A stretch of DNA of 64,000 bases from an uncultured delta proteobacterium (GTDB lineage: Bacteria; Desulfobacterota; Syntrophobacteria; Syntrophobacterales; Syntrophobacteraceae): assembly GCA_963712895.1 (NCBI GenBank), contig CAVQJR010000011.1:4588-68587 (forward strand), read 5' to 3'. Every line of letters begins with the position of its first letter. The stretch's first letter is position 1. The notes under the pieces are model-generated. The model saw only the letters and a list, made by a program, of their open reading frames with translations, ran no database searches and was not told the DNA's origin. Made by a program: the position numbers and the translations under genes. Positions 8,142 through 64,000 of the stretch are shown here, piece after piece.

Positions 8142-9524
8142 CTAAAGCTCCATCAACATGCGTTCGGGGTTTTCCACGTTGTCTTTTATCGTCTTCAGAA
8201 ACGTCACGGCCTCCCGGCCGTCTATTACCCGGTGGTCGTAGCTGAGGGCCACGTACATCATCGGGCGGACCACCACCTGGCCGCCCAGCGCCACCGGGCG
8301 GTCCTCTATCTTGTGCATGCCCAGGATGGCACTCTGGGGCGGGTTGAGGATGGGGGTGCTCAGAAGCGATCCGTAGATGCCCCCGTTGGTGATGGTGAAG
8401 GTACCCCCTTCCAGGTCCGAAAGCCCGAGACGGTTTTGGGAAATCTTGTCCACGAACTCCACGATCGATCTCTCCAGGCCGGCGAACCCGAGTCCGTCCG
8501 CATCGCGGATGACGGGCACCACCAGCCCGCGCTCCGCACCGATGGCGACGCCGATATTATAGTAGCCGTGGTAGACGATCTCGTTGCCTTCAAGGAATGC
8601 GTTGACCTCGGGAATATCCTTGAGGGCGGCGACACTCGCCTTTATGAAAAAGGACATCATCCCGAGCCGCACGCCATACTTTTGCCGGAAACCATCCCCG
8701 TACTGCTTTCGAAGCGCCTGCACGCGGCTCATGTCGATTTCGTTGAAGGTGGTGAGCATGGCGGTGTTTCGCTTCGACTCCAGGAGCCTTTCCGCGATGC
8801 GCTGCCGGATGGGGGACAACGCCTTTCGAAGCGTCTTCCCGGCGGCGGGAGCGGGAGTGGGACGGCGGGGGGCCGCCGATTTTGGCGCAGCCGGCGCGGC
8901 CGGCCGGCCGGCGGCCGTTCCGACCGGTTCGTGCCGGGGTATCGAAGCGCCGGGCTCGGAGACACCGCCTCCCTGTTCCAGGAAGAGCAGTACGTCGCCT
9001 TCGGTTATCCTGCCTCCCGGTCCGGTCGGGGTCAGCGCCGAAAGATCGACGCCCTTTTCTTCGGCCAGGGACGAAACGGAAGCGGAAGCCAGCGGCTTTT
9101 CGGCAGCGGGCGGTTTTGGGGGAGGTTCGGGTTCGGGCACCGCCGCTTTGGGCGCCGGCGGCCGCTCCACCGGTTTTTCCTCCACCGGGGCCGCCGTTTC
9201 AGCCCGCCCGGCACCGGGCGCGGGTGTTTCGACGGCTTCCCGTGGCTCCCGGGCCGGCGGCTCCGGCCTTTTTTCCCCTTTTTCGGCCGCCGCCGTCTCG
9301 ATTGTGGCGACCACCGTTCCCACCGAGATGGTTTTGCCTTCCTCCACCAGGATCTTCAAGACCCCGGCGGCGGGAGCGCTCACCTCCAGTGTGACCTTGT
9401 CGGTTTCGATGACGAACAGGATATCGTCCCTGGCCACCGTCTCACCGTCTTTTCTCATCCACTGCGCCAGCAGCGCCTCCTGCACGGATTCGCCGACTTC
9501 GGGCACCTTCACTTCGACCTTCAT
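8142..9524 (-). CDS. sucB: Dihydrolipoamide succinyltransferase (E2 of 2-oxoglutarate dehydrogenase)
   Basis: Lipoyl domain with [10 protein letters not shown], a Pro/Ala-rich linker, and the catalytic [10 protein letters not shown] take the start at ATG 9522-9524 (MKVEVKVPE). The listed 76-codon N-terminal extension overlaps the sucA 3' end and looks spurious. Confidence 0.9.
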
Positions 9525-9546: not shown

Positions 9547-12306
9547 TCATTCAACATCCACCCCTTCCAACTCCGGCCGGCGATGCCCTCGCTCCCCGGC
9601 GCCCGGAAACGCCATTTCCAGGAACCTGTCCTGCTCGTGCTTGTGCGAGGCAAGGTAGCCCGAAGCAGGGCTTGCGGCCACGGCCCTGCCGATATATCCC
9701 GGCTCGGAGCCCAGGATCGTTTTGAGCCTGGGGCGCATGAATTCCCACGCACCCATGTTTTCGGGCTCTTCCTGGACCCAGAAAAATTTCCCGGCCTGCG
9801 AATACCTCGAAACCGCCTCCCGAAGTTGCTCTTCGGGGGTCGGGTAGAACTGCTCGACGCGGATTATCCCGGTCCCGGTGTCACCGGATTCCAGGCGCTT
9901 CTTTACGAGGTCGTAGTACACCTTGCCGCTGCAAAAAAAGACCCTTCCCGCATTCTCGAAACCGGTATCTTCGGTGAGGACCTCGTTAAAACGGCCCGCG
10001 GCCAATTCCTGGAGATTGGACACGGCGGCGGGGTCTCTCAGCAGGCTCTTGGGTGTGAGCACGATCAAAGGTTTTCGGAAATTTCTCTTCATCTGCCGTC
10101 GTAACAGGTGAAAATACTGCGCGGGGGTGCTCGGATAGCAGACCTGCATGTTTTCCTGCGCGCACAGTTGCAGAAACCTTTCCATGCGGGCGCTGGAATG
10201 TTCCGGCCCCTGGCCTTCGAACCCGTGGGGCAGGAGCACGGTGAGCCCGCTGTGTCTTTGCCATTTGAACTCGGCGCTGGATATGAACTGGTCGAAAACG
10301 GACTGGGCGTTGTTTGCGAAATCCCCGAACTGGGCCTCCCACATCACCAGGGTGCGGGGGCTCACGAGCGAATAGCCGTATTCGAATCCCAGGACCGCGT
10401 TTTCCGAGAGCATGCTGTCATGGACGTGGAAAGGGGCCTGGTTCGGCGCCAGGTGATTGAGCGGGCAGTGGCGCGCCTCGGTTTCCATGTCGGAAAGGAC
10501 GCTGTGCCTCTGGCTGAAGGTGCCCCTGCTGCTGTCCTGGCCGCTGAGGCGCACCGGGGTCCCCTCGACCAGCAGCGTTGCAAACGCCAGGGCCTCGCCG
10601 GTTGCCCAGTCTATCCCTTCGCCCTTTTCCACGCTTTCCACCCGCCTGTCGAGAATGCGCGCGAGCCGCCGGTGAGTTTTAAAGCCCTCCGGGAATACAT
10701 TGAGCCCGCGGGCAAGGTCGCGCAGCGCCGCGGCGTCCACTCCCGTGGCGACCGGCTCCCAGGACCAGCCGCCGTCAAGACCTTCCCAAACCTCGAAAAA
10801 GCGCTCCGCGGGCATCGTGCACGTCTTTTCGTGGGCGGCCGTATAGGCGAGTTCCATGCACTTGTTTATGCCGTCAACGATGCGCTCGGTTTCGCCCTCG
10901 CCCGTTACGCCCGACTGCTGAAGAGTCTGCGAGTAGATCCGGTACAGGGGCGGGCGGTCCTTGATGCGCTGGTACATTTTAGGCTGGGTATAATAGGGCT
11001 CGTCACCCTCGTTGTGCCCGTAGCGACGGTAGCACACAACGTCCACCACCACGTCCTTGCCGAACTGCATCCGATAGTCGAGCGCCAGCTTTATAATGTG
11101 GACCGCGGTTTCGGGGTCTTCACCGTGGACGTGGAAAATCGGGACCATCAGCATCTTTGCCACATCCGTCGCGTACCGGGTGGACCGGGCGTGTTCGGGA
11201 AGCGTGGTGAACCCGATCTGGTTGTTTATTATGATGTGCAGCGTCCCGCCCGTGCCGTATCCTTCGAGCTGCGAAAGGTTGAGCGTTTCGGCAACGACTC
11301 CCTGGCCGGCGAAGGCGGCGTCCCCGTGGATCAGAAGCGGCAGCACCAGCCCGCGGCCGCTTTCGCCCAACCGTTCCTGCCGCGCATACGCGATCCCTTC
11401 CAGCACGGGGTCCACGGCTTCGAGGTGGCTGGGATTGTTGGCAAGAAACAGGCGGATCTTTTTCCCCTCTCCCTCCAGGTCGCCCATGTAGCCCCGGTGG
11501 TACTTTACATCCCCGGCCCCATAGATCGACTGCGGGTCGTAGTGCTCCTCGAATTCACAAAAAATCCATTCGTAGAGCTTGTTCATTATGTTTACCTGGA
11601 TATTGAGACGCCCCCGGTGGGCCGTTCCAATCTCGATCTCGCCAAACCCGGCGCGGCCGGCATGCCGCACCAGCGCGTCCATCATGGGAATGATTACGTC
11701 CGCACCTTCCAGTGAAAACCGTTTCTGGCCAATGTAGCGAATGTGCAGGAACTGCTCGAACATGTTCGCCTGGCAGAGCTTGTTTAAAATCAGCACCCTT
11801 TCGTCATTGCTCAGGCCGGGGCGGTTGCGCTCCGGCTCGATCCTTTCCTGGAGCCACGCCCGCTCGTGCGGGTCCTGGAGGTGCATGTACTCGATACCCA
11901 CCGAACGGCAGTAGGTCCGGCGCAGCGCGGACAGGATGTCCCGAAGCGTGGCGTCTTCGCTAAACAGGGTGGGTGGGGTGAAGAAACGCCGGTCGAGATC
12001 GTCATCGGAGAGGCCGAAAGCGGAAAGTTCCAGCAGTTCGTGATTATTGACGCACCTTTCCAGCGGGTCGAGACAGGCCAGCAGGTGCCCCAAGTCGCGG
12101 TAACGATAGATGAGTTCCTGGACGCCGCACTGCTTTAGCAGCTCGCCCCTTTCGCAAAAACCGGCGCCGACACGCTCGGGAGATGCCGCCAGCTCGAAGC
12201 CTTCGAAAAAAATCTGCCAGTCGCGCCCGACGCTCAGCGGGTCGGACATCCACTTCCGGTACTGCTCGTCCATGAATTCGGCGTTCAAACCCAAAGCTAG
12301 ATTCAT
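9547..12306 (-). CDS. sucA: 2-oxoglutarate dehydrogenase E1 component
   Basis: 919 aa. N-terminus [28 protein letters not shown] and the ThDP-enzyme body are typical SucA. Confidence 0.95.
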
Positions 12307-52045: not shown

Positions 52046-54784
52046 ATGCTCAAGAGGTTTCAAGCCGTTTTTGCGATAGTCGTCCTGTTCGCCGCCGCGG
52101 TTTTCGCTCAGGCACCGCCCGCCGATGCCGAAATGCAATGTCCCCAGGTTCCCCCGCAATTGCGCCAATCCGTGCAGAGGACCCTGGCCTCCAAGCCCGA
52201 AGACCTGTTCGTGGTGCTCAAAAACGGCCTGACGCTTCTCGTGCACCAACAGCCGGGCGCCGAGGTGGTTTCGGCCCAGGTTTTCGTTCGCGCGGGCTCC
52301 ATGCTGGAAGGAAAGTATCTCAGCGCCGGCCTGTCCCACTACCTTGAACACGTGGTTGCCGGAGGTTCGACCCGATCCTTTACCGAGGACCAGGCCAAGG
52401 AACGCATCAAGGCCATGGGAGGCTCCACCAACGCCTACACCACCTACGACAAGACCGTCTATTATATCAACACGGGGACCGAGCACTGGAAGGACGCCCT
52501 GGATATATTGCTTTCCTACGTTTCCGAAAACCTTCTCGACCCCGGTGAGGTGGCGCGGGAAAAATCGGTAATTCAGCAGGAAATGAAAATGGGTGAAGCC
52601 AATGCGGCCAACGAACTCTGGAGGCTGTTCGTCCAGACCGCCTACCAGGTCAGTCCCGTTAGAATCCCGGTGATCGGATACGAGCAGGTCTTCGTCAGGC
52701 AGACCAGGCAGGACCTTCAGGATTATTACAATAAGCGCTACCAGCCTGAAAACATGGTCGTCGTTCTGGCCGGCAACATTCAGCCGGCCGAAGTGCTGAA
52801 ATTCGTAGTCGATAAGACCGCCGACTTCCTGCCCGGCCCCACCGATTCCGCGCCGGTAACCGAAGAGCCTCTCCAGACCACGCCGCGCTGGAACGAGAAG
52901 GAATTGCCCATAACGAGGCTCGTCCAGGCAAAAATAGGGTTTCCCACGGTAAACGCTTACAACAAGGACGCCTACGCTCTCGATGTCCTGGCGAACCTGC
53001 TGGGCGAGGGGGAAACCTGCCGCCTGTACTGCCGGTTGAAGGACCAGGAAAAAAAGGTCTACGCGATCGGGGCCGCACACTGGTCTCCGGCCTACGTGCG
53101 CGGCCAGTTCATCATCTCCGTTTCGCTCTCCCCTTCGCAATGGCCGGGAGCACTCAAGGATATCGAGGAAGAAATCAAGGGATTTCAGACTTCGACGGTG
53201 AGCGGCCCCGAACTGGCCAAGTCCAAAAAGACGGCCGTGGCGCACCATATCTTCGCCAAGGAATCGGTTTCCGCGATGGCTGCTTCTCTTGCGTCCTCGT
53301 ACCTGATCTCCGGGGACCCGTACTTCGATGAGGAATACGTGGACGGGATTCGCACGGTCACCGCCGAAGATGTCCGGCGCGTCGCCGAGCAGTATCTTGT
53401 CCCCGAGCACATGAACGTGGCGGTGATAAAGCCCCCGTCCGCCGAACCCCCGGCGGTCCAGGCCGCCGCCGCCGCATGCCCGGTCCCGGCAATCTCGCCG
53501 GTTGAATTCGAAAAGTTGCCCGACGGGCTCAGAACTCTGGTCAAACAGGATACCGCTCTACCCTTTGTCACGATGCACATTTACGGCAAAGGCGGGGTTT
53601 CCCTGGAAGATTTTAACCGGCCGGGAATCTCGGCGTTTACGGCCTCGCTTCTAACCGCGGGCACCACCACCCGGACCAAAATGCAAATCCTGAGGGCGGT
53701 GGAGGACGCCGGAGGGTTGATCGATGCCAGGTCCGACAACAACACTTACCACATCTCGATCAAGGTGCTGAAGGAGGACTTCAACTGGGCGATCGACCTT
53801 CTCGCCGACCTGGTGCAAAACTCCAGCTTTCCGCCCGAGGAAATCGAAAAACAGCGCCAGGATACGCTCATCGCCATAAAACGCTCCGATGAAAACTGGC
53901 AAAACGAGGTGCTGCGGCTGTTCAAAAAGAATTATTTCCACAAAACCAATTACGTAAACGACCGCCTGGGTACCGCCGAATCGGTCAAGGCCCTGACGCG
54001 CGACGACCTGCTCGCTTTCTACAAGAAAATGGTCAATCCCACCCATTCGGTCCTGGCGGTCTACGGGGATATCGATCCGGCAGCCGTTAAGGCCGCCATA
54101 GCGGAAAAATTCGGCAAGTGGTCCGGGCAGCCGGTGCAGGTCAACCTGCCGGATGAAAGACGCCCGATAAGCAAGACGGGGGTTGTCGAAATCAAAAACG
54201 AAAAGAACAGCGCGGCCCTCTATATCGGCACCAACGGGATGGCCGTGACCGATCCGCAGCGGCCCGTACTGGATGTTTTGACCGGTATCCTTTCCGGAGG
54301 GGGCGTGACCGGGAGAATGTTCGAAGCCCTCAGGGGCGGCGAAGAAAACCTGGTCTATACCGTATTCGCGTTTCCCTTCTACGGTGAAAACGCCGGGTTT
54401 TTCGGGGTGATGACCCAGACCACGATGGGAAACCTGGACAAGGTCCAGCAGATTATCATGGCAAACCTGAAGAAACTGGCCACCGAACCGGTATCGCAGG
54501 CGGAACTGGACAAGTCGCGTGAAACGATGCTCGTGGCACAGAAGCTTGCCAGGCAGAGCCTGGACAGCCAGGCTTCCAGCGCTGCCCTGAACGAAGTGCT
54601 CGGGCTCGGGTGGGACTACGACCGGCGCTACCCCGAACTTATCGATGCGGTGACACCGGCGCAGATAGAGGAACTCGCCCGGAAGCTGTTCGCCCACACC
54701 CTTACGGCAAAGACCCTGCCCAACCACCCCGTGGAGATCCTGGCGACACCAGCCGCCAGGCCCCACAGCGACGTGCGGATGTAG
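52046..54784 (+). CDS. Secreted M16-family zinc peptidase (two tandem M16 units)
   Basis: Signal peptide MLKRFQAVFAIVVLFAAAVFAQA, the inverted zinc motif HYLEH, and a duplicated peptidase_M16 / M16_C architecture. GAAAGGA lies upstream of ATG 52046. Confidence 0.9.
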   Translation: MLKRFQAVFAIVVLFAAAVFAQAPPADAEMQCPQVPPQLRQSVQRTLASKPEDLFVVLKNGLTLLVHQQPGAEVVSAQVFVRAGSMLEGKYLSAGLSHYLEHVVAGGSTRSFTEDQAKERIKAMGGSTNAYTTYDKTVYYINTGTEHWKDALDILLSYVSENLLDPGEVAREKSVIQQEMKMGEANAANELWRLFVQTAYQVSPVRIPVIGYEQVFVRQTRQDLQDYYNKRYQPENMVVVLAGNIQPAEVLKFVVDKTADFLPGPTDSAPVTEEPLQTTPRWNEKELPITRLVQAKIGFPTVNAYNKDAYALDVLANLLGEGETCRLYCRLKDQEKKVYAIGAAHWSPAYVRGQFIISVSLSPSQWPGALKDIEEEIKGFQTSTVSGPELAKSKKTAVAHHIFAKESVSAMAASLASSYLISGDPYFDEEYVDGIRTVTAEDVRRVAEQYLVPEHMNVAVIKPPSAEPPAVQAAAAACPVPAISPVEFEKLPDGLRTLVKQDTALPFVTMHIYGKGGVSLEDFNRPGISAFTASLLTAGTTTRTKMQILRAVEDAGGLIDARSDNNTYHISIKVLKEDFNWAIDLLADLVQNSSFPPEEIEKQRQDTLIAIKRSDENWQNEVLRLFKKNYFHKTNYVNDRLGTAESVKALTRDDLLAFYKKMVNPTHSVLAVYGDIDPAAVKAAIAEKFGKWSGQPVQVNLPDERRPISKTGVVEIKNEKNSAALYIGTNGMAVTDPQRPVLDVLTGILSGGGVTGRMFEALRGGEENLVYTVFAFPFYGENAGFFGVMTQTTMGNLDKVQQIIMANLKKLATEPVSQAELDKSRETMLVAQKLARQSLDSQASSAALNEVLGLGWDYDRRYPELIDAVTPAQIEELARKLFAHTLTAKTLPNHPVEILATPAARPHSDVRM

Positions 54785-54798
54785 CGGGGGCTTGAGGG

Positions 54799-54880
54799 CT
54801 GGATGCTCGATGGTGGATGCTGGATGCTGGATGGTAAGCCTGGATGCTCGATGGTGGATGGTCGATGGTCGATGGTGGAC
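54799..54880. repeat. TGGATGC / GATGGTC short tandem repeat tract
   Basis: CTGGATGCTCGATGGTGGATGCTGGATGCTGGATGGTAAGCCTGGATGCTCGATGGTGGATGGTCGATGGTCGATGGTGGAC begins 14 nt after the peptidase stop. Confidence 0.8.
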
Positions 54881-55083
54881 AGGGCAAAGCCCTTGCCCAC
54901 CATAGCGTCACCCCGGCAGCGCCTCTGGGCCGGGGTCCAGTGTCTTTCGCTGGTTCCCAAGCTCCGGCTTGGGAACCGGTCTTGCCCCAATGGGGCTCAA
55001 TTCGGTCCGGTCCGGCGCGTAGAGCTGCCCTGGTCACATGCCCCCCACGAGTCACCGCCCGGAAGAACGCTGCAGGCCTTATA

Positions 55084-55203
55084 CCAGTTTGCGTCCAAGA
55101 TCGTTCGTCCTGAGGTATCGAAGGGCGGACGATCCACCCGTTCATGCTTCGATACCTCAGCACGAACGGGACCAAGTTCAGTTCAATCTTGAACACAAAT
55201 TGG
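55084..55203 (+). repeat. H-family MITE variant (TA-flanked, 22-bp hairpin of unrelated sequence)
   Basis: The termini CCAGTTTGCGTCCAAGAT and ATCTTGAACACAAATTGG form an 18-bp TIR. TA at 55082-55083 and 55204-55205. The stem pairs 55102-55123 with 55147-55168 with one mismatch. Confidence 0.85.
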
Positions 55204-55490
55204 TATTAATTACATTTTCGCCAGTGTTTCGAAACGGGGGGCTTACCACCACGGCGCTGCGCGGCTACTCACCTTAATGACGTTCTGCCCGCGCATCCCC
55301 CTCTCCGAATGAGAATCTAATCTCCAGATATGTTTTGAAGAACTTGTGAATTCCCAGTGCTTCGATTTTGAAGAGGAGAGGAATTCCTTTCATTGCCCAA
55401 GGCTCCACAAATGAAACCAGCCGGGACGTTTCCGACATCAAATCCAGGCCGGGAACTTGTTGATTGTAGCCTATGGAAGTCCTTTTCATA

Positions 55491-56613
55491 CCAACTTGCG
55501 TGCAAGATTGAACTATAGTAATATGCAACCCACCACTCAGGAGGAGGTTGCCAATGCCAAAGAAAACGAAAGTATCCGGCGAGGTGCTTCAATTGGCTAT
55601 GGAAGCTGCTGAGAAAGCTAAAACTTCCGATGACCTCAGAGCTGCTCAAGCTGTATTGATCCCTGGCCTTCTCGACATCCCTGACCGCATCACCGGGAAA
55701 ATCATCGGCCGCTCCCGTGTAACAGTAGTCCAACTGCGGAAGAAATTCAGCATGGCTAAACAAGCGCAAAACCGCAACTGGGGCGGTTGCCGCTCCGGCT
55801 ATATGACTGTTGAGCAAGAACGCCAATTCCTCTCGGAATTCTTGGACCGGGCTGCACATGGCCGTATTTTGGTTGTAAGTAAGATTCAGCAGGCATTTGA
55901 GGCCAAAGTGGGGCGCAAGGTAGCCCAAACCACTATATACCGGATGCTGGACCGGCATGATTGGCGAACGATCATTCCCGGACCCCGCCATCCTAAAAGC
56001 AGCGCAGAGGCCCAGGAGGGCTTTAAAAAAACTCCCGAAAACAGTGGCTAAATGCGCCAAGGCACTTGCTCCGCTCAGAGTACGTTTGCGGTTGATGCTT
56101 CAAGATGAGGGCCGCTTTGGAAGAATCAGCACCCCTCAACGTTGCTGGGCGCCACGCGGAGTTCGCCCCTGTGTTCCAAGCCAGATCGTGCGCGAGTACA
56201 CCTATGCATATGCTGCCGTATCGCCTCATGACGGAACAATGGATTCGTTGATTCTTCCTCAGGTTAACGAGCAGGCAATGTCCATCTTTTTACGTGAAGT
56301 AAGCAACCGACATCCGGATGAGTTCATTCTGATGGTAATGGACGGCGCCGGATGGCATAAAGCCAAGGCGCTCAGTGTGCCCACAAACATGGCGCTGATC
56401 TTTCTTCCACCATATAGTCCAGAACTCAATCCGGTAGAGCATATTTCGGATCACTTCCGCGAGGACGGCTTCCGAATCAAGGCTTTTAATAGCATCGAGG
56501 CCGTGGAGGATCAGTTGATGCAGTCCTTGGAAGCCCTCGAAATGAACCCGGCGTTAGTGGCAAGCATGACGGGCTTTCCTTGGATCGTTAGTATGAACTT
56601 GCACGCAAAATAG
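55491..56613 (+). mobile_element. IS630-family insertion sequence (1123 bp) with TA target duplication
   Basis: The left end CCAACTTGCGTGCAAGAT matches the reverse complement of the right end, CTATTTTGCGTGCAAGTT, at 14 of 18 positions. TA at 55489-55490 and 56614-55615 corrected to 56614-56615. The transposase stop lies inside the right IR. Confidence 0.85.
55554..56613 (+). CDS. IS630-family DDE transposase, made from two frames by a probable -1 frameshift
   Basis: orfA (HTH, ends 56051) and orfB (DDE: ...MLQDEGRFG...MVMDGAGWH...PPYSPELNPVEH) overlap. An A7 run at 56025-56031 (TTT AAA AAA A) lies in the overlap. Confidence 0.8.
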
Positions 56614-56703
56614 TAGCAACCACCGGGTAGGGTCGGGCATAAATTCACCTGCCCACCGGAATTTTCATGTATTAATCTAAAATGCCAGTGGGATTCGCGG
56701 ACA

Positions 56704-56790
56704 AGAACTGTACCGTGGCCATAATTTACGAATTCCTCTTGTGCTTCGCACCCGGATTGACGAGCTATCAGTGCAACCACGCGGGAACAA
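56704..56790. repeat. Left ~85-bp inverted repeat bounding the LexA-MTase cassette
   Basis: Its reverse complement aligns with 61283-61367. The perfect 51-bp core is GGTTGCACTGATAGCTCGTCAATCCGGGTGCGAAGCACAAGAGGAATTCGT. Confidence 0.9.
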
Positions 56791-56802
56791 GGGATATCCC
56801 CA

Positions 56803-57499
56803 CTACCGAATGAGCAGCCATAGGTGAGATATGCTTATGGGACATGCTGAGCCTCGGTATTCAGGCCAGAGAAAATCCCTTCTGTGGCTTGAACGATAGA
56901 TCGCATGTTCATCAATCGCGGAATGCTCAATTGGTTTCAGAATGGCTTTATTTTTGACATCATCAAGGATGAAAGCAAGCTGTGCGAAAGAGTACCCTTC
57001 CTTTGCGTATCCGCCATAAGCGCGTCCTGCATGGCCCATGCATAATCTCCATTGACGAAGCGGACTAAGCCCTTATTGCAGTAGCAGGACGAGATGGTGT
57101 GTTTAGGATCGATCGGTTTCACTCCACAAAGAGACCATCTTGATCGCTGAGAATCGGCAAGTTTCCTCGTCTTAATTTGAAGAAGAAGTCCGGCATCTTA
57201 TCGGGGTGCTTTTTGTCAAAATTTGTGATCTTTTGATCCCTGCTCACTCTGCCGAACAACTCATTGTTAAATCCATTGATTTCGCCGCTCTTTCGCAAAC
57301 GGTTTTCGATTATTTCGACCAGAATTTGTGTAACGGTATCTTCGTCAGCCAATTGCATATTAAAGCCGGTGGGAGGGGTTTCTTCGAGCAACTGCCAAGC
57401 CCTCCTGATAACCTTGGTGAGGAGCAGGATAGTACGCTCTGGAATTGGCGGGTGCGGCAAGGTGAATTCCACACCACGAGTGAAAAAGCCGATGGGCAT
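56803..57499 (-). pseudogene. Frameshifted small ORF with a possible PD-(D/E)xK nuclease motif
   Basis: Three successive minus-strand ORF pieces lie in different frames (57119..57499, 56937..57122, 56803..57039). The ATG overlaps the MTase stop (TGATG, 57497-57501). Repairing a 1-nt shift at ~57119 gives ...KMPDFFFKL-x-DGLFVE-x-KPID. Confidence 0.6.
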
Positions 57500-60400
57500 C
57501 AGCTTCTCCTTATCGGAAAAGCATCGAGGTGATGGCGTAGAATGTCTAATGCACATAACCGGGCACGGCTTAGCGTCCAATAACGGTATTGGCCGATGAT
57601 CCCTACAAGCAGATATCTCTCTCCATGGACAATGACACGGCTGCAGCCTGTTCTATTGGCTTCTTCGGTGATCAGAGAAATCAGGTGATTTTGCGCCGCT
57701 TGCGTCGGGACTGGCGAACCTGCGGACGAGGAAACAGAAAAGAAATGCCAAGGAGACAGGAATCCTTGTTTCTCAACCTGAACTTCACGGACTGCCAGGG
57801 TCTCATTTGTCAGATCGAAAGATGGTATCAGTAATTGGTGAAGTTCCGCATAGAAAGCACTGCGCTCGTCTTTCTTTGGGGGGCTGTTGGCACGGTCTCG
57901 GGCTTCCCTGAAGGGAGATGCAATCTCTAGTGTATCTTTCACGACTTGACGCTCATATTCATCGATATCGTATAAATCGAAAATGAAATCGTTAATCGCT
58001 TTCCAGGGTTTGACGGCTTCTGTTTCAAGCTGAATAGACAGAGCTTCTGCGTTTAGGCGTTGATCTGGGGATAACAGCTCTGGTGTTGGAAAAGGAAACT
58101 TCTCAATGTTCTCTTTAAGAAAAGTTCTTCGTTCGGCAGCCATCCTGGAGCTAGTCATCAACACATGGTAGCGGAACAAATCACAGTGGGTGATCAGGTG
58201 AAGGAGCGCGATGATAGTGTTCGCTTTGTTGCTGCCAGCCGCAGAGAAGCCGTAATAGCTTTTGCTGAAAACAGCCGATTCATGCACAATCCATGATTTA
58301 GGCGAGTATTTACGCCCTCCCGGCGATTCCGGTACAATGAGCAGCGGAGGTGTATACAATGCAATACATCTGGGCATATGGGCCGTAGGTTGCATGAATT
58401 TACGGAGCAAAAACACGTCGACCGAAAACAGGCCATTTGGTGGTGGAGCAAAATCTGGCAATCTGAGCATGAATGCTGCATCATATTGGCGCAGTTTTGG
58501 TGAACGATCGTATCCCCTCCCTGAATAAAGTCTCATGTCCTTCCAATATGACTCAACGGTCGGCCACTTCGGTTCATCAATCTTGCGGACCACTTGCACA
58601 TCTAGAGAAGTACCTACAGCTAAAGTTTTAAATAGCCAGGGATCATCAATTACTCCTATAGCGGCTACCGGCTGAGCAGATTGATAAGCAAGACGGAGAC
58701 GTCCCACATCGTTTAGGCTTCTTTCAAGATGAGGTGTAAGGAAATGAAAATGATGGCTGGCAGCGGGCACCCGGTTACGTGCAAACAAGAGCATGATAGG
58801 CTGGCTCATGCCTGGCCAGACCGCAGTATCCGACAGATTAGATCCGTTCAATATCCCCGTAATTTCCATTCCATTGAGGATTGCTTCAAAAGCTTGGACA
58901 CCTGATACTGTCTGTTTAAGAAAGATCGGCCCAGGCAGTACCATGGCGATGATGCCCCCCGGCTTGACCCACTGTGTCGCTTTCCATAAAAAAGGGAGGT
59001 CGGGGTTGTTATCGGGATTGCGGTAAGACTCTGCAAGTCCTCCGAGGCCGCGATTTTTTAGTGCCTGGCGTGTTAGACCCGTGAATGCGGCGTTATGTTC
59101 TCTAACTTGTTTCTTGGACTCTTCATCGTCGCCTTTAAGCCGCCCCCATGGTGGATTGCCGATGACCAGATCGAAGCAACCGTCGAAATCTTCGGGGAGA
59201 TCCGAACTCAGGCTACCCAGCACAAATCCCTTTGCCTCCTGCTCTTCAGGCCTCCTAAAGTTATGCAGCGCCGCACCCTGAAGCGGTTTAGGGAATCTCA
59301 GGCTTTTGGGAGGCCGCTGAGTCCCATTGAGTTCAACAGCGGTGATATAAAGTGACAATGCCGCCAGGCGTAACGCAGATTCATTAACATCGAAACCACA
59401 TAATTGAGTGTAGAGGATAGACTGAATCGTCTTGGTATCAGGTCTTTTACCGTCATGTTCCCACCGGGCCGCTACAAGCTTTCTAAATGCAAGGACGAGA
59501 AAAACTCCGGCACCGCAACTCGGGTCCAGGATTCGAGCGTCCTTCTTATTGGATAGACCGTCAAAAGCATCGTCCACAAGGTATTGAGCAATGTTCCTTG
59601 GTGTATAGTACGCGCTTGTCTGTTTCCTGTGTTGAGGATCCCAGATTTTGCTGAAATTTTCATACACCTGACTGAGTACACCTATAGGAATGTGTGCGAA
59701 GTCGAGATTGCCCCAATCAATAGTGGTTTGGAATGAGGCCCCAACATGTTTCCATCCTTCCAAAATAGCTCTGAGATCAAGGAACACTCGACCGTCCGTC
59801 TTCAAATTCGCTTGATTAAAGAGTTCTTTATAATCGCCTGTAAGAGCAAGCAAGTCACCGTTAAAGGTCTCATCCAGCCATCGGCATGTTGCGACAGAGT
59901 TTTCGACATCTCTAAAGCAATCACCGGAGGAATTTGCGTTTGGGCATACAGTATTAAGTTCATTCTGCCGCACTATTTTGCGGTCCCAGAGGAAGCGAAA
60001 GAACAGTGCCCGTCCAAGGAATGAAAGCACATCAAGAGGATTAAGACCGTAGGTCCCGATGAGATCCTCGGAGGAGTGGGTCATGAGATCATTAATTCTT
60101 TTGAATACAAAATCAGCTTCTTTAGGCTGGCCTTCCAGGCTGAAAACACCGTTTATGATACTCTGAAAGAACAGGGGAGCTTCAGGAGTCTCACGTTTTA
60201 TCGTCTTCCCGGCGCTGCCGGCGAGAGCAGAGCGGTCCAAGTTTATCGGATATACAACCAGTTCGCCGGGATTCAAAACACCGAGGTAGGCAATCTCTCC
60301 CCGGTTAGCAAGAAGACACTGTAAGTCCAACCTCTTCTCGGGATCGGAATTCTGTATCTGGCCTCCCGACACGATGTAAAGGAGAGGCCTGGCCTGGAAT

Positions 60401-60543
60401 TCAGCGACCGCATCAACTTTAAAACTCGCGTTTCCCGAGAGCTTCAGCAGATCGAGGTATTCCAAATGCCTGGGGGTTGGCTCGCTATCGAGCCGAACGA
60501 CGTCATGACATCCATAGGCTTTGGCTTCATCAATGACATTCAT
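57499..60543 (-). CDS. Large N6-adenine DNA methyltransferase (gamma-class, Eco57I/type IIG-like core) with unassigned N- and C-terminal regions
   Basis: Motif I ILDPSCGAGVFL, FDVNESALRLAALSL, and motif IV DLVIGNPPWG in the order I then IV. ~330 aa N-terminal and ~450 aa C-terminal to the core are unrecognised. The start overlaps the repressor stop (ATGA, 60540-60543). Confidence 0.85.
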   Translation of the reverse strand: MNVIDEAKAYGCHDVVRLDSEPTPRHLEYLDLLKLSGNASFKVDAVAEFQARPLLYIVSGGQIQNSDPEKRLDLQCLLANRGEIAYLGVLNPGELVVYPINLDRSALAGSAGKTIKRETPEAPLFFQSIINGVFSLEGQPKEADFVFKRINDLMTHSSEDLIGTYGLNPLDVLSFLGRALFFRFLWDRKIVRQNELNTVCPNANSSGDCFRDVENSVATCRWLDETFNGDLLALTGDYKELFNQANLKTDGRVFLDLRAILEGWKHVGASFQTTIDWGNLDFAHIPIGVLSQVYENFSKIWDPQHRKQTSAYYTPRNIAQYLVDDAFDGLSNKKDARILDPSCGAGVFLVLAFRKLVAARWEHDGKRPDTKTIQSILYTQLCGFDVNESALRLAALSLYITAVELNGTQRPPKSLRFPKPLQGAALHNFRRPEEQEAKGFVLGSLSSDLPEDFDGCFDLVIGNPPWGRLKGDDEESKKQVREHNAAFTGLTRQALKNRGLGGLAESYRNPDNNPDLPFLWKATQWVKPGGIIAMVLPGPIFLKQTVSGVQAFEAILNGMEITGILNGSNLSDTAVWPGMSQPIMLLFARNRVPAASHHFHFLTPHLERSLNDVGRLRLAYQSAQPVAAIGVIDDPWLFKTLAVGTSLDVQVVRKIDEPKWPTVESYWKDMRLYSGRGYDRSPKLRQYDAAFMLRLPDFAPPPNGLFSVDVFLLRKFMQPTAHMPRCIALYTPPLLIVPESPGGRKYSPKSWIVHESAVFSKSYYGFSAAGSNKANTIIALLHLITHCDLFRYHVLMTSSRMAAERRTFLKENIEKFPFPTPELLSPDQRLNAEALSIQLETEAVKPWKAINDFIFDLYDIDEYERQVVKDTLEIASPFREARDRANSPPKKDERSAFYAELHQLLIPSFDLTNETLAVREVQVEKQGFLSPWHFFSVSSSAGSPVPTQAAQNHLISLITEEANRTGCSRVIVHGERYLLVGIIGQYRYWTLSRARLCALDILRHHLDAFPIRRS

Positions 60544-61181
60544 GTAATGCCCCGATAATTTCTGATTCGAATTATCCCCTGATAGCGTCCGAAGATCTGA
60601 ATGAGTTCAATCTCGTCCTTGGCGTATTGACGATCGCGAAATGCTGGGTTTTCGGCTTTTAGTATAAGCAGATCTGGTGACAAGTATACCTTTTTCAATG
60701 TGGCCTCCTGCTCTATAAGAACGGCAGCGATCTCTCCATTTTCAACTCTATCCTGTCTCCGGATTACGGCGAGGTCGCCATTTCTGATTCCTGCCCCTGT
60801 CATGTTGTCGCCTGCAATACGGAGAGCAAAAAGCTCACCTCCACCAAAGAGGGAAGGCGGAATTGGAAGATTTTCTTCAATGTTCTGCTCCGCCCACATT
60901 GGAACTCCTCCTGCAATAACTCCAAGCAGAGGGATAGTCCTCTCCTGCTGGGGAGCAACCATTGTATCTGAAATCACGAACTGGATTCCGCGCGCTTTTC
61001 CGAAATTCAGGCGAATGAAACCTTTTTTTTCGATAAGTCCGAGGTGGCCACGCACAGTGTTGAGACTCCGATAGCCCAAGCCATCGCGGATTTCCGCCTG
61101 AGTCGGTGGAGAGCCATGCTTTTTCTGCCACGCGACAATATAGCGGTAAATGCTAGCTTGTTTCTCGGTCAGGTCCTTCAC
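60540..61181 (-). CDS. lexA: LexA-family (S24 peptidase) repressor paralogue
   Basis: Winged-HTH N-terminus (PPTQAEIRDGLGYRSLNTVRGHLGLIEKKG), an Ala-Gly site in LLGVIAGGVP, and an S24 body with Lys in ATLKKV. The catalytic Ser position reads Asn (AGDNM). GTG start. Confidence 0.85.
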   Translation of the reverse strand: MKDLTEKQASIYRYIVAWQKKHGSPPTQAEIRDGLGYRSLNTVRGHLGLIEKKGFIRLNFGKARGIQFVISDTMVAPQQERTIPLLGVIAGGVPMWAEQNIEENLPIPPSLFGGGELFALRIAGDNMTGAGIRNGDLAVIRRQDRVENGEIAAVLIEQEATLKKVYLSPDLLILKAENPAFRDRQYAKDEIELIQIFGRYQGIIRIRNYRGIT

Positions 61182-61200
61182 TGGGTGTCTTTCTAAGATA

Positions 61201-61235
61201 TACTGTATAAATTAACACTGGTATTATAAACAGTA
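61201..61235. promoter_or_regulatory. Two abutting SOS-box-like operators overlapping TATAAT-like hexamers
   Basis: TA-CTGT-ATAAATTA-ACAC (61203-61218) and CTGG-TATTATAA-ACAG-TA (61218-61233). The outer halves are perfect TACTGT/ACAGTA. They lie 20-55 nt upstream of the lexA-like GTG. TTTATAATAC occurs twice on the gene strand. Confidence 0.55.
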
Positions 61236-61282
61236 TTATAAAGCAGAAAGCAAGGGAATTTTTGAAGCTGTGCTTTAGACAT

Positions 61283-61367
61283 TGATTCCCGCGGGTTGCA
61301 CTGATAGCTCGTCAATCCGGGTGCGAAGCACAAGAGGAATTCGTCAAATAATGGCCACTACAGTTCT
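61283..61367. repeat. Right ~85-bp inverted repeat bounding the LexA-MTase cassette
   Basis: Partner of 56704-56790 (51-bp perfect core, a few indels and mismatches outside it). Confidence 0.9.
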
Positions 61368-61428
61368 ATGTCCCCAGAACTCCTCCCGCATGATGGCAAG
61401 TCATAGAATAAGCCTTAAAAATATCGTT

Positions 61429-61452
61429 GCCAAAGGCAACTTTGGCTTTTTT
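61429..61452 (+). terminator. Candidate rho-independent terminator facing away from the cassette
   Basis: GCCAAAG-GCAA-CTTTGGC followed by TTTTTT. No convincing plus-strand CDS lies upstream. Confidence 0.5.
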
Positions 61453-61560
61453 AAGATATCTTACTTATGGAAACCATCCGAGAAGATAGCATAAGGATGG
61501 GCGATCCCTACTTATTTGGATACGCATTAAGATGGGGAAATAAATGCCCGACGTGGCCGT

Positions 61561-62505
61561 TTAAGGCTCCGTTCGGCCGGGAAGGCAGAGGAATTCCTTT
61601 CCGCCGAAGGCCACAAATGCCAGCCGGGCCTCATCGCGCAGCCTTCTTGATTCGATTTCCAGCTCCCCCTCGGCAATTCCAAGCGATGCGGCCAACTCGG
61701 GGATCGTGCACGGCCGCCTTTCTATGGTTTCAAGAATGCGGGCCGCGATATCGGACTTCCCGGCTTCCGCGCCGCGCCCGCCGAAAACGCCGATGATTTC
61801 GGTTCGTTGCGTCTTGAAATAAGAGGCGGCGCGCTTCATCTCCTCTTCCGAAAGGCCCCTGGTGCCGGCACACGCGGGCGGCCTCACCACCGTGTTGAGT
61901 TCTATCCTGTCGGCCCCCGTTTTTTCCGCCGCCAGCGCCAGCGCGGACAATTGCTCGGGGCTGTCGTTTACCCCGGCAACGAGCATGATTTCGATATGAA
62001 ACAGGCCCCGGTACTCACGCCCGAACGCGCGAAGCCCCTCCAATATTTCCGGAAGACCGAGCATTGGATGAGGCCTGTTGATTCGGGCGAATACTTCAGG
62101 GGTGGCCGCATCCAGGGAGGGCACCACCCTGTCGGCTTTGAGAAGATCTTTTCTGACACCCGCGTCGTGCAGAAGCGAGCCGTTGGTGAGCACCACCAGG
62201 GGGATTGCGGGGTACCTGCCCTTGATCTCGCCGATCAGTTCCCCCAGCATGGCATAAAGCGTGGGCTCGCCCGCGCTGGAAAAAGTGAGGGCGTCGGCCC
62301 CCTTCGGGAACCGGCGGAAGAATTGGTCAAGCTCCTTGAGGACTTCGGCCGGGTCGGCGAAATTTTGCCTCTTCAGGCTCAAGTGGGTCGTCGGCCCCGA
62401 TTCGCAGTATATGCAGTCGAAGGAACATGTCTTCGGGGGAATTACGTCTATTCCCAGCGAACGCCCTAACCGGCGCGAAGGCACGGGACCGAATATCAAA
62501 CCCAT
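61561..62505 (-). CDS. Radical SAM protein with C-terminal winged-helix-like extension
   Basis: GPVPSRRLGRSLGI N-terminus, CSFDCIYC (CxxxCxxC) cluster and GEPTL. Confidence 0.85.
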   Translation of the reverse strand: MGLIFGPVPSRRLGRSLGIDVIPPKTCSFDCIYCESGPTTHLSLKRQNFADPAEVLKELDQFFRRFPKGADALTFSSAGEPTLYAMLGELIGEIKGRYPAIPLVVLTNGSLLHDAGVRKDLLKADRVVPSLDAATPEVFARINRPHPMLGLPEILEGLRAFGREYRGLFHIEIMLVAGVNDSPEQLSALALAAEKTGADRIELNTVVRPPACAGTRGLSEEEMKRAASYFKTQRTEIIGVFGGRGAEAGKSDIAARILETIERRPCTIPELAASLGIAEGELEIESRRLRDEARLAFVAFGGKEFLCLPGRTEP

Positions 62506-62530
62506 TGATTTTCCACCATTTCATCCGGCA

Positions 62531-62953
62531 TCAGGCATCTTCGGAAGAGGTCATTTTCATCACCTGGTCCGCCTTGCCGGTGTAGACTTCGCAATCGGAA
62601 CACGAAATTTGCTTGACGTTGCAGCGGTCCCTGATCTCCCAGCACGGCTGAGGGATATCGAGCAGGGCCGGGCAGCTTTTGCGTTCTTGTTCGGAGCAGT
62701 TGCGGATCGACCAGCAGGGCGCCAGGGTGAGCAACTTTTTTACTCCCGCAATGTTCAAGCCCTCCTCGCTCAGCAGTTTGCGCAGGCATTTGAGCCATTG
62801 CAGGTCATTGTTCGAATAAAACCGTTTGCCGCCTCGCCTGGCCGGTTTTATCAGCCCCTCCTGCTCGTAGACCCTGAGGGTCTTGGGATGAATCCCGATC
62901 AATTCGGCGGCTATGCCGATGGAGTATAAAGCCTTGCTGCCGGGTGGGTCCAT
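62531..62953 (-). CDS. MerR-family transcriptional regulator with Cys-rich C-terminal domain
   Basis: YSIGIAAELIGIHPKTLRVYEQEGLI HTH, then seven Cys in the last ~60 aa (CWSIRNC, SCP, CWEIRDRC, CSDC). Confidence 0.8.
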   Translation of the reverse strand: MDPPGSKALYSIGIAAELIGIHPKTLRVYEQEGLIKPARRGGKRFYSNNDLQWLKCLRKLLSEEGLNIAGVKKLLTLAPCWSIRNCSEQERKSCPALLDIPQPCWEIRDRCNVKQISCSDCEVYTGKADQVMKMTSSEDA

Positions 62954-63183
62954 CGTCCCTGAAACCTCCTTAAACCTTTCGGTACAAGATGATATGAACG
63001 GTGAAGGATTATATAAGCTGCATCAGGCATAGTCAACTTTGCCCGGACCGGCATTTGCTCTTCCAAAAATGCTGAAAATACTGTAATTATTAAGGGTTGC
63101 GGGCTGTGGGTTTCAGGTTGCGGGAGCGCGGCCCGGCCGGCGGTCGCAGCCCTTGGAAAAATCGGCCCTTACGGGTATTTTAT

Positions 63184-63243
63184 CCGCAACACGAAACACG
63201 TAACCTCGCCCCGGCAGAGTCCCGGGGCCGGGGCCGCAACCCC
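63184..63243 (-). repeat. V-family repeat, inverted copy
   Basis: The reverse complement GGGGTTGCGGCCCCGGCCCCGGGACTCTGCCGGGGCGAGGTTACG aligns with 36199-36241. GGTTGCGGG words also occur at 63094-63124. Confidence 0.6.
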
Positions 63244-63258
63244 GAAGGAGAATGCCAG

Positions 63259-64000
63259 ATGCGAAGCGATCTAATGAAAAAGGGCGTTGAAAAGGCACCG
63301 CACCGCTCCCTTTTCAAGGCCATGGGATATACACAGTCGGAACTGGACCGGCCCCTCATCGGCGTGGTCAATTCGGCCAACGAAATCATCCCCGGCCACA
63401 TCCACCTGGACAAGATAGCCGAAGGCGTAAAGGCCGGTATCCGGCAGGCCGGAGGCACTCCGATCGAATTCAGCACCATCGGTGTTTGCGACGGGATAGC
63501 GATGAACCACCCCGGTATGCGCTACTCGCTGGCCAGCCGCGAGCTTATCGCCGACTCCGTTGAGATCATGGCCATGGCCCACCCCTTCGACGGCCTGGTG
63601 CTGATCCCCAACTGCGACAAGATCATACCCGGAATGCTCATGGCCGCGCTCAGGCTCAACATCCCGGCGATCATGATCAGCGGCGGCCCCATGATGGCCG
63701 GGCGGGTGGACGGCAAGCAGGTTGACCTCATTTCGGTGTTCGAAGGGGTCGGTTCTTTTAAGGCGGGCCAGATTTCAGCCGACGAGTTGGACCAGCTCGA
63801 AGACAGCGCCTGTCCGGGGTGCGGTTCCTGCGCGGGAATGTTTACGGCCAATTCGATGAATTGCCTGGCGGAGGCCATCGGGCTTGCGCTGCCCGGAAAC
63901 GGGACGATCCCCGCCGTCACCGCCGCCCGGATCCGCCTTGCCAAGCAGGCGGGCGGGCGCATCCTGGACTTGATAGCAAAAGACATCAAGCCGCGCGACA
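63259..64000 (+). CDS. ilvD: Dihydroxy-acid dehydratase, 5' partial (runs off the window)
   Basis: [24 protein letters not shown]...[15 protein letters not shown]...[11 protein letters not shown]...[10 protein letters not shown]...[22 protein letters not shown] lies 8 nt upstream of the ATG. Confidence 0.95.

Follow-up and report, generated by a model that had tools for sequence, protein, structure and literature searches.

What kind of element is formed when a LexA-type repressor gene, a gene for a very large adenine methyltransferase (MTase) and a broken open reading frame (ORF) are joined in one operon? This question is raised by a compact cassette on the minus strand of the 64-kb stretch of DNA analyzed here (the window), which comes from an uncultured deltaproteobacterium of the Syntrophobacteraceae. 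A first-pass annotation, made from the sequence alone, had proposed a horizontally acquired restriction-modification (R-M)-like, addiction or defense module gated by an SOS-type repressor. We consider it probable that this region of the window is the decayed copy of a conserved, mobile three-gene module of R-M type, the expression of which would be gated by DNA damage. The earlier proposal is supported, and our own reading draws on the TIGR00498 match of the repressor (gene 1), on conserved SOS boxes, on the motifs of the MTase (gene 2) and on the D…E-C-K protein that is encoded by intact versions of the third gene (gene 3). More tentatively, the triad may constitute a distinct and widespread defense architecture, namely a split Type IIL-like restriction complex with a portable SOS switch.

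The three genes had been described as one translationally coupled unit, and both overlaps were found at the positions claimed. The lexA stop codon overlaps the MTase start codon (ATGA at 60543-60540, minus strand), and the MTase stop codon overlaps the start codon of gene 3 (TGATG at 57501-57497), which is preceded by an AAGGAG ribosome-binding site. The unit was also AT-rich, as stated, with a GC fraction of 0.45-0.52 over about 55200-61400 compared to 0.58-0.64 in the flanks on either side. The coordinates of the features are collected in Table 1.

A search for homologs of the MTase gave >2,400 matches. The best 120 were full-length (999-1039 aa, and one of 952 aa) with 66-85% identity, and those among them that carried a taxon name were almost all from deltaproteobacterial metagenome-assembled genomes (MAGs; Desulfobacterota in current taxonomy). 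A scan for related loci, in which one genome per species was kept, returned 27 loci, all of them in Desulfobacterota MAGs (loci and contigs are given below as L numbers). In about 24 of the 27, lexA, the MTase gene and gene 3 followed each other in the same order, and their products measured 213 aa (LexA), about 1012 aa (MTase) and about 231 aa (gene 3). The 4-nt overlap between lexA stop and MTase start was present in most triad loci, and gene 3 either overlapped the MTase gene or was separated from it by a gap of a few bases. Intact versions of gene 3 were found in these genomes, for example in the intact triad at 7363-11740 of L001. The recurrence of the triad refutes an accidental adjacency of the three genes.

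By record name, the hosts of the triad included Syntrophobacter, Desulfosarcina, Desulfatiglandales, Desulfonema and Syntrophorhabdaceae. The surroundings differed between them, with insertion sequence (IS) and toxin-antitoxin genes in L001, genes like those of integrative and conjugative elements in L003, housekeeping genes in L032, and a defense island with an EcoRV-like nuclease and SIR2 in L034. Such unrelated chromosomal contexts are the pattern of a compact mobile module, and the presence of the same operon in many genomes and in unrelated places bears out the claim of horizontal acquisition. In a Desulfatiglandales MAG (L031, 2080-7139), a diversity-generating retroelement was located directly upstream of the triad, with genes for bAvd, for a reverse transcriptase and for target proteins of the NACHT/FGE-sulfatase type.

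Gene 1 is a genuine LexA paralog. Its product scored 156 bits against TIGR00498 (cut-off 110.95), 56.3 bits against PF01726 (LexA_DNA_bind, a winged helix-turn-helix [HTH] domain) and 89 bits against PF00717 (Peptidase_S24). We aligned the window protein with 20 orthologs and with the LexA proteins of E. coli and B. subtilis. All 20 orthologs kept the Ala-Gly site of cleavage, the Lys that acts as general base (T-L-K-R/K) and, as nucleophile, Ser (G-D/E-S-M); G-x-S-M was also present in E. coli LexA and B. subtilis LexA. The window protein keeps the Ala-Gly site and the Lys, whereas its nucleophile, unlike that of every ortholog, has been changed from Ser to Asn by a mutation of AGC to AAC (codon 60804-60806). 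The altered catalytic residue that had been noted in the repressor was therefore confirmed, as GDNM in place of G-x-S-M. The set of features required for self-cleavage was complete in the orthologs, including those from the distant loci L114 and L116 described below, and incomplete in the window copy.

Operators of the type CTGT-N8-ACAG had been reported for the unit, and these were present, as two adjacent boxes (TACTGTATAAATTAACACT and TACTGTTTATAATACCAGT) that each differ by one mismatch from TACTGT-N8-ACAGT. They were the only matches of this type in the 64 kb, where 0.17 were expected, and at least two matches were found in 4 of 100 shuffled sequences. The tandem arrangement was conserved in 20 related loci, where the boxes precede the lexA start codon by about 63 to 37 nt, and the upstream consensus of the related loci consisted of a CTTGCT-type element followed by abutting palindromes, TACTGT-N8-ACAGTGT-N8-ACAGTAT. 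In the two distant triads, a single palindrome preceded lexA (TACTGC-N8-GCAGTA in L114 and TACTGT-N8-GCAGTA in L116). That palindromes of the same type recur in these two loci, which differ in GC content and neighborhood, suggests that the palindrome is read by the module's own LexA, in which case only RecA would be needed from the host. The paralog would bind its own tandem boxes and undergo cleavage stimulated by RecA on single-stranded DNA (RecA*). No minus-strand promoter was called for the operon by a consensus promoter scan, and the position of the promoter was therefore deduced solely from the conserved CTTGCT… and TATAAT-like elements around the boxes.

For gene 2, the assignment as an adenine MTase was upheld. 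Motif I (LDPSCGAGVF, 59500-59529) and motif IV (GNPPW, 59146-59160) were both intact, and the protein was matched by the Pfam families N6_Mtase, Eco57I and MmeI_Mtase. These matches were confined to aa ~290-565, and for aa 1-288 and aa 564-1014 there was no Pfam match even at E<=10. The best PADLOC match was a partial one, to REase_MTase_IIG. From relatives at 34-85% identity we then built a broad MTase profile, within which motifs I and IV were invariant. A profile search of the PDB ranked DrdV (7lo5) best, followed by CamA, HsdM proteins, M.BseCI, BrxX and MmeI (5hr4). All these matches spanned the MTase core only, and this core lies at the same point of the chain (~280) as it does in DrdV and MmeI. 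The AlphaFold2 (AF2) model of the protein was poor (pLDDT 62.6), and the Foldseek matches obtained with it (CamA, BpuSI, HsdM, BrxX and BsaXI at E around 1e-6) were used solely as support for the class of protein, an MTase with a target-recognition domain (TRD). The region C-terminal to the core is presumed to be responsible for target recognition. No viral contig carrying the MTase was found when IMG/VR was scanned with the MTase alignment.

Type IIG and IIL restriction enzymes have their nuclease at the N-terminus. The N-terminus of the MTase had been called unassigned, and this holds in that it lacks any Pfam match; its position, however, is that of the nuclease in Type IIG/IIL enzymes, although the nuclease triad is not conserved. 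Within the N-terminal ~100 residues, G11, Y29, L32, V46, E48, P53, L54, L74, L78, R81, G82, L87, G93, L95 and V97 were invariant across the broad family. E48 was the only acidic residue among them; there was no invariant Lys or Asp, and D44 and Q50 varied. Among the relatives at 34-85% identity, no conserved PD-(D/E)XK catalytic triad was thus found in this part of the protein.

A candidate for the missing nuclease is encoded by gene 3, whose intact orthologs are ~231 aa long (232 aa in L001). In the alignment of the close family, two segments were invariant, H98-P-D-K-M-P-D104 and Q120-D-G-L-F-V-E126-C-K128. In distant relatives (25-37% identity), D103, E125 and K127 were invariant and the Cys was kept in at least 90%; these members also kept P-D…E-C-K, G-D-Y-A-W-A-M and a C-terminal H-x-R…H-L-W-L. 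The AF2 model of gene 3 (pLDDT 80.8, pTM 0.83) placed D104 just before a strand (105-109) and E126 and K128 within another (122-131), with helices 53-71 and 136-150 framing these strands and a further strand (159-166) after them. The predicted topology (helix, three strands, helix, strand) is that of the alpha-beta-beta-beta-alpha-beta core of PD-(D/E)XK nucleases. Together with the invariant D…E-C-K motif, this predicted core agrees with the earlier description of the third product as nuclease-like.

Searches with gene 3 against Pfam (E<=10), NCBIfam, PADLOC and PHROG gave no match, a profile search of the PDB gave nothing below E=0.5, and Foldseek gave no match at E<=0.001 against the PDB and BFVD. 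The best E-value from Foldseek was about 0.1, and EcoO109I, BglII, SgrAI, Mus81 and Mrr-like proteins appeared at E around 0.2-3, the first four of them at E around 1-3. Because none of the structural matches was significant, the nuclease assignment is one of motif and topology and not of homology. A repair nuclease of the MutH or Vsr type was considered for gene 3 and rejected, as Foldseek gave no match to such folds. A profile search of 1.84 billion representative proteins yielded 555 clusters of gene 3 (E<=0.001), of which 369 reached E<=1e-10.

How often lexA accompanies the other two genes among these 555 clusters was gauged from a sample of six lineages outside the close Desulfobacterota clade. 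In each of them, gene 3 (~235 aa) was located directly downstream of a 1007-1055-aa protein of the N6_Mtase/MmeI_Mtase type, and either overlapped the MTase stop codon or began within a few bases of it. A LexA-type gene was found immediately upstream in two of the six (L114/L115 and L116/L117), with the Ser, the Lys and the cleavage site intact. These triads (L114 2104-6723 and L116 2220-6753) come from genomes of 56-59% GC, and their gene 3 products were ~31-35% identical to P0260, a member of the distant family used as reference. In L114, the gene caller had started lexA too late and thereby dropped the HTH domain. The other four lineages (L110, L111/L112, L113 and L118/L119) had no lexA, and no SOS boxes were found before the lexA-less modules of L110, L111, L113 and L026. 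Since lexA is missing from four distant lineages while the pair of MTase and small protein is present in all six, this pair is the invariant unit across phyla, and the LexA head of the module is frequent and old, but dispensable. The inclusion of LexA in the unit, as first annotated, therefore holds for about 24 of the 27 close loci and for two distant lineages, but not for the invariant core.

We compared the module with known systems. The triad was not found in literature on LexA in connection with methyltransferases, restriction or defense. PADLOC, NCBIfam and Pfam hold no model for the triad or for gene 3, and match the MTase only generically or partially. A 2013 review of R-M regulation names LexA only for toxin-antitoxin systems, and a 2025 review of R-M biology does not mention it. 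The view that this is not a described system is consistent with all of these results. The closest resemblance was to Type IIG/IIL enzymes (MmeI, DrdV, BpuSI, Eco57I), with which the MTase shares a chain of ~1000 aa, a gamma-class N6A MTase core from residue ~280-290, a long region C-terminal to the core, and its best PADLOC, PDB-profile and Foldseek matches. It differs from them in that the matches cover the MTase core only, in that the N-terminal PD-(D/E)XK triad is not conserved and in that, unlike in these single-gene systems, a separate D…E-C-K protein of ~235 aa is always coupled to it, often with LexA at the head.

Type II R-M systems controlled by C proteins are similar in that a small autoregulator comes first, followed by separate modification (M) and restriction (R) genes, with operators over the promoter; they are also horizontally mobile units that lose R before M on decay. 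In contrast to the Xre-type C proteins and their C-boxes, the regulator here is a self-cleaving repressor with a LexA winged HTH and an S24 domain, acting on SOS boxes, and the MTase has three times the usual size. The expected input would also be different, being RecA* and DNA damage and not only the time since entry. In some Proteobacteria, lexA2-imuA-imuB-dnaE2 cassettes are mobile, self-regulated SOS cassettes headed by a LexA paralog. By analogy, the present operon would be another spread operon with a LexA paralog in first position and its own boxes, although its cargo is an MTase and a putative nuclease and not translesion polymerase components. BREX (PglX) and MADS (MAD2) showed weak similarity over the MTase core and the helical region that precedes it. 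Both systems were rejected: PglX models scored 26-39 bits against cut-offs of 400-900, with no PglZ, BrxC or BrxL in the neighborhoods read, and the MAD2 model NF047738 scored 59.9 bits against a cut-off of 720, with no other mad genes in the neighborhoods.

DNA-damage-sensing regulators of immune operons form a well-established class that continues to grow, namely CapW/BrxR, CapH-CapP and CapK-CapS (2026), which are found with R-M and BREX, among others. As in the present module, a dedicated repressor heads an immune operon and is relieved by a signal of single-stranded DNA or DNA damage. Here, however, sensing would fall to the RecA filament of the host, with a LexA paralog as its target, and not to a WYL domain (as in CapW/BrxR), a metallopeptidase or a kinase. 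None of the three regulators is described as LexA-based. Neither a LexA/S24 regulator nor LexA control of R-M appears in the 2026 paper on immune-operon regulators. The subunit arrangement and the class of regulator are therefore rated as the features that would be new relative to known R-M defense.

From these comparisons, a mode of action can be proposed. The MTase/TRD subunit would recognize a site and methylate the host DNA, and would recruit or license the small nuclease against unmethylated DNA. As the MTase N-terminus has no acidic/lysine triad, the nuclease would come in trans from gene 3, forming a split Type IIL-like complex with the MTase. The LexA paralog, bound to its own operators, would hold the operon at a low, self-limited level, and since the three genes are coupled, the low and steady level of repressor synthesis would also supply MTase and nuclease. 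During phage infection, conjugative entry or DNA damage, RecA on single-stranded DNA would trigger self-cleavage of the paralog, and expression of the whole operon would rise. Such a switch would be portable between phyla, because the repressor would read its own SOS boxes and need only RecA from the host.

The copy in the window no longer has all of these parts. The MTase frame is intact, while gene 3 begins as a 126-aa ORF (57119-57499, minus strand) followed by two more short frames that reach 56803. Compared to the intact 232-aa ortholog of L001, two 1-nt deletions were found, the first at 57119/57120, inside the E-C-K codons (GAG TG-A AA, giving a TGA at 57121-57119), and the second at 57013/57014, in agreement with the frameshift noted earlier. 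By its reading frame, the nuclease gene of the window is dead. The ratio dN/dS between window and L001 was about 0.2 for all three genes, and the value of 0.21 for gene 3 indicates that the breakage was recent. As the nucleophile Ser has been lost to Asn, the repressor should be uncleavable, which would lock the operon down. With both its nuclease frame and its repressor affected, the module is in a decaying state, as had been suggested; the window copy would no longer function in restriction and would leave an intact, probably tightly repressed MTase. Loss of R before M is the order of decay expected of an R-M or addiction pair, and loss of the nuclease together with the induction trigger is what would be expected if induction were costly. 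Decay was also seen among the relatives. In L010, lexA was reduced to a 47-aa stub (1591-1734), L022 likewise had a stub, and in L026 there was no lexA upstream of 5995. Some of the other decaying copies may be sequencing errors in MAGs.

The cassette had also been described as bracketed by inverted repeats of ~85 bp. The arms are real: over 57 nt they are 96% complementary without gaps (56722-56778 and 61294-61350), and allowing one indel lengthens them to 85 nt with 94% complementarity (56704-56790 and 61367-61286). Their 49-mer core had exactly two occurrences in the window, with 0 expected, and 15 nt separate the inner end of the left arm from the gene 3 stop codon. They do not, however, define the boundary of the cassette, as the repeats were restricted to the window and one other locus of the Syntrophobacter lineage (L001/L004), together with L002, a short contig on which this cassette is also present and which breaks off in the repeat, and were absent at all other loci with comparable flanks. 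In L001, the closest relative, the arms are 150 nt long and 99% complementary. The right arm of the window was homologous to positions 22-145 of the L001 arm, continuing to 61414, while the homology of the left arm began only at position 63, being cut off on the side that faces a neighboring IS630 element. Arm identity was 96-99% within a genome compared to ~85% between genomes, and the window and L001 cassettes are in different contexts. The full-length L001 arms were inspected for a target-site duplication, and their flanks (…ACGCAATT before the first arm and CCTGATCT… after the second) showed none. With repeats restricted to one lineage, no target duplication and no transposase inside, the cassette does not have the features of a transposon-like unit.

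A metagenome scan with a 25-nt arm pattern gave no match. A looser scan with a 20-nt arm motif detected about 55 copies of a ~115-nt palindromic repeat on high-GC contigs (the 'E' repeat), in addition to about 15 chance matches in one unrelated coding sequence. The 'E' repeats were located in JGI metagenome contigs (L035-L109) at seemingly intergenic positions, sometimes several per contig. Each has a 5' half (GGGTGGCCCCGATAGCTTGTCTATCGGGGTGCCGAAGGCACAAGAGGC), a variable loop and an inverted 3' half (GCCTCTTGCGGCT·CGCCGCCCTGATAGACGAGCTATCAGGGCCACCC), and so consists of a GTRG head and a 9-bp hairpin in two inverted copies. One 'E' repeat was predicted to fold as a long DNA hairpin (-35.6 kcal/mol, z = -6.1), whereas the cassette arms alone do not fold (z about 0). 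A role of the arms as terminators was rejected, as they gave no fold signal. An exact 18-20-mer was common to the 'E' repeat and the cassette arms of a Syntrophobacter-type genome. A hidden Markov model (HMM) of the 'E' repeat matched only the arms of the window, L001, L002 and L004, and gave no further copy in the 64-kb window or in any other triad locus. Only spurious matches to plant miRNAs were obtained when ten 'E' repeat loci were scanned against Rfam.

Repetitive extragenic palindromic (REP) sequences and REPIN elements have a GTRG head and a short palindrome, form a long hairpin from inverted copies, occur in many intergenic copies and have a RAYT transposase in the genome. The shape of the 'E' repeat resembles that of REPIN elements. 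The arms of the cassette are a lineage-specific feature, probably derived from a REPIN-like palindromic repeat and located outside the conserved module. Long direct repeats flanked the module and its neighbors in two other loci, L018 (96 nt, 97%, 4964-5059 and 9897-9992) and L113 (136 nt, 98.5%, 2881-3016 and 9076-9211). These recall what has been reported for R-M units as 'insertion with long target duplication'. Flanking repeats that are long and either inverted or direct were reported to recur at R-M gene complexes (Furuta, Abe and Kobayashi 2010, PMC2853133). The present module is like those units in being compact, in carrying long inverted (window, L001) or direct (L018, L113) repeats, and in being inserted as a bare unit; it is unlike them in that there is no short target duplication at the L001 arms and in that its inverted repeats are homologous to a REPIN-like family.

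These flanks would also fit a selfish element, mobile or addictive, that lives by post-segregational killing or by spreading itself, with the repeats as ends mobilized in trans. Repeat-bounded copies occur in two contexts with arms that are more alike within than between genomes, long direct repeats surround the module in L018 and L113, and in some genomes the bare module sits between housekeeping genes. In addition, many short contigs of 4-6 kb end at the cassette, R-M units with such flanks are documented (PMC2853133), and loss of R before M is typical of addiction modules. We nevertheless consider this explanation rather unlikely, as the inverted repeats are absent from every other locus with comparable flanks, the L001 arms have no target-site duplication, no transposase or integrase is consistently linked to the module, and the arms are like an intergenic palindromic repeat family and not like IS ends. 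The explanation also overlaps with that of a mobile R-M-type module, since selfishness and defense are not mutually exclusive. The broken third ORF of the window, and nothing else, would favor an accident, in which an unrelated LexA, an orphan MTase and junk ORFs were brought together by chance or by faulty annotation or assembly. To this we assign next to no probability, given the same genes, overlaps and sizes in dozens of genomes and in distant lineages, and the low dN/dS of all three genes.

An unlikely alternative reading of the same operon is that of a DNA-damage response cassette, in which SOS-induced methylation and nicking would serve repair, recombination or mutagenesis and not defense. 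It would explain why gene 1 scores as a LexA equivalog, why the operators are canonical SOS boxes, why the MTase shows no TRD diversification, and why the operon is headed by its own LexA, like the known mutagenesis cassette. The distribution of the module is patchy, however, its contexts vary and include defense islands, and its GC content is below that of the host flanks. In four distant lineages the core pair is also found without lexA, and in the three of them that were scanned (L110, L111 and L113) also without SOS boxes; the fold of gene 3 gave no match to repair nucleases such as MutH or Vsr, and a large MTase-TRD protein with a small PD-(D/E)XK protein is the architecture of an R-M enzyme. 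Colicin-type SOS promoters are covered by tight double operators, and the double operators overlapping the promoter of the present operon could by the same token point to SOS-triggered suicide (abortive infection). The operon would then be off and the genome unmethylated until RecA* unleashed the nuclease on host and phage DNA alike. The lesions of the window copy would agree with this, since they hit the trigger (Ser to Asn) and the nuclease, the two lesions that would neutralize a lethal module. However, lexA comes first on the same transcript, so that steady synthesis of repressor also makes M and R, and the MTase, which would be purposeless in a pure suicide device, is the best-conserved component; we rate suicide as quite unlikely.

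Some of our results weigh against the interpretation as a DNA-damage-gated R-M-type module. With four of six distant lineages lacking lexA, SOS gating is not essential to the core. The N-terminal and TRD assignments of the MTase are weak, and its structural model is of low confidence. There was no hypervariable TRD within the clade, conservation being roughly uniform along the MTase (0.52-0.88 per 40-residue block), an uncommon pattern for R-M enzymes that diversify. For gene 3, none of the solved nucleases gave a significant match in structure or sequence. Finally, L022 (1255-4276) and L027 (6001-9033) carry a frameshifted MTase gene beside an intact gene 3, an arrangement that does not sit easily with a toxic restriction enzyme acting on its own. 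This pattern may reflect a nuclease that needs the MTase subunit and is harmless alone, or it may reflect sequencing errors in MAGs.

If a DNA-damage-gated R-M-type module is indeed what these loci encode, they would represent a large uncharacterized family of two-subunit restriction-type enzymes, with 555 clusters of gene 3, in which an MmeI/DrdV-like MTase-TRD subunit without a nuclease of its own is partnered by a small PD-(D/E)XK protein. A mobile module with its own LexA and SOS boxes would make restriction RecA-inducible in any host, which bears on the timing of defense relative to the entry of a phage or plasmid, and the classical SOS co-protease mechanism would join WYL repressors, CapH-CapP and CapK-CapS among the controls of immune operons. 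The window copy is a relic of limited importance by itself; as a natural knock-out, with its Ser-to-Asn change and dead nuclease, it would show which parts are costly.

Table 1. Features of the cassette and its surroundings in the window, with examples of the related 'E' repeat in metagenome contigs (L numbers)
Feature	Position	Strand	Basis
Gene 1, 213-aa LexA paralog	60540-61181	-	ORF list, Pfam, TIGR00498
Gene 2, 1014-aa gamma-class N6-adenine DNA methyltransferase, frame intact	57499-60543	-	ORF list, Pfam
Gene 3, pseudogene of ~231-aa putative PD-(D/E)XK-type endonuclease	56803-57499	-	Alignment to intact orthologs
Tandem SOS-box-like operators, overlapping putative operon promoter	61201-61235	-	Pattern search
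Left inverted-repeat arm	56704-56788	.	Self-complementarity to right arm
Right inverted-repeat arm	61283-61367	.	Self-complementarity to left arm
IS630-family insertion sequence, 27-nt terminal inverted repeats	55489-56615	+	ORFs, profile matches, repeat search
'E' repeat, L090	2282-2404		
'E' repeat, L042	2447-2576		
'E' repeat, L036	627-741 and 1330-1434		

The cassette is located between an M16-type peptidase gene on its left and a radical-SAM gene on its right, the latter recognized from the annotation of relatives and an ORF of the window. No Rfam family matched 54000-64000 at E<=1, and a search of the 64-kb window with ARAGORN gave neither a tRNA nor a tmRNA; the arms are therefore neither a known RNA nor a tRNA attachment site. 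The IS630 copy, which had been placed about 90 bp from the cassette, ends 88 bp from the left arm. Its terminal repeats (55489-55515 and 56589-56615) are unrelated to the cassette arms, the interior of the cassette contains no transposase, and the element is a neighbor outside the conserved module. Its own transposase is encoded in two overlapping ORFs (55548-56051 and 55957-56613) and is either frameshifted and dead or dependent on a programmed frameshift.

Further repeats were observed around the IS630 copy and the cassette. A solo inverted copy of the IS630 left-end repeat was present at 55180-55209, 275 nt outside the left end of the element (55485-55514), and could be either a MITE-like end or what is left of an earlier IS630 copy. 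Adjacent to this solo copy, a hairpin with a 22-bp perfect stem was found at 55102-55123 and 55147-55168, and there was a tandem array of a 7/14-nt unit (TGGATGG / TGGATGCTCGATGG, about 5-11 copies) at 54799-54879, just past the stop codon of the M16-type peptidase gene. On the other side, the right arm is separated from the end of the radical-SAM gene by a bidirectional terminator-like hairpin (61426-61446, GTTGCCAAAGGCAAC and then a run of T), which places the cassette just outside the terminator of that gene.

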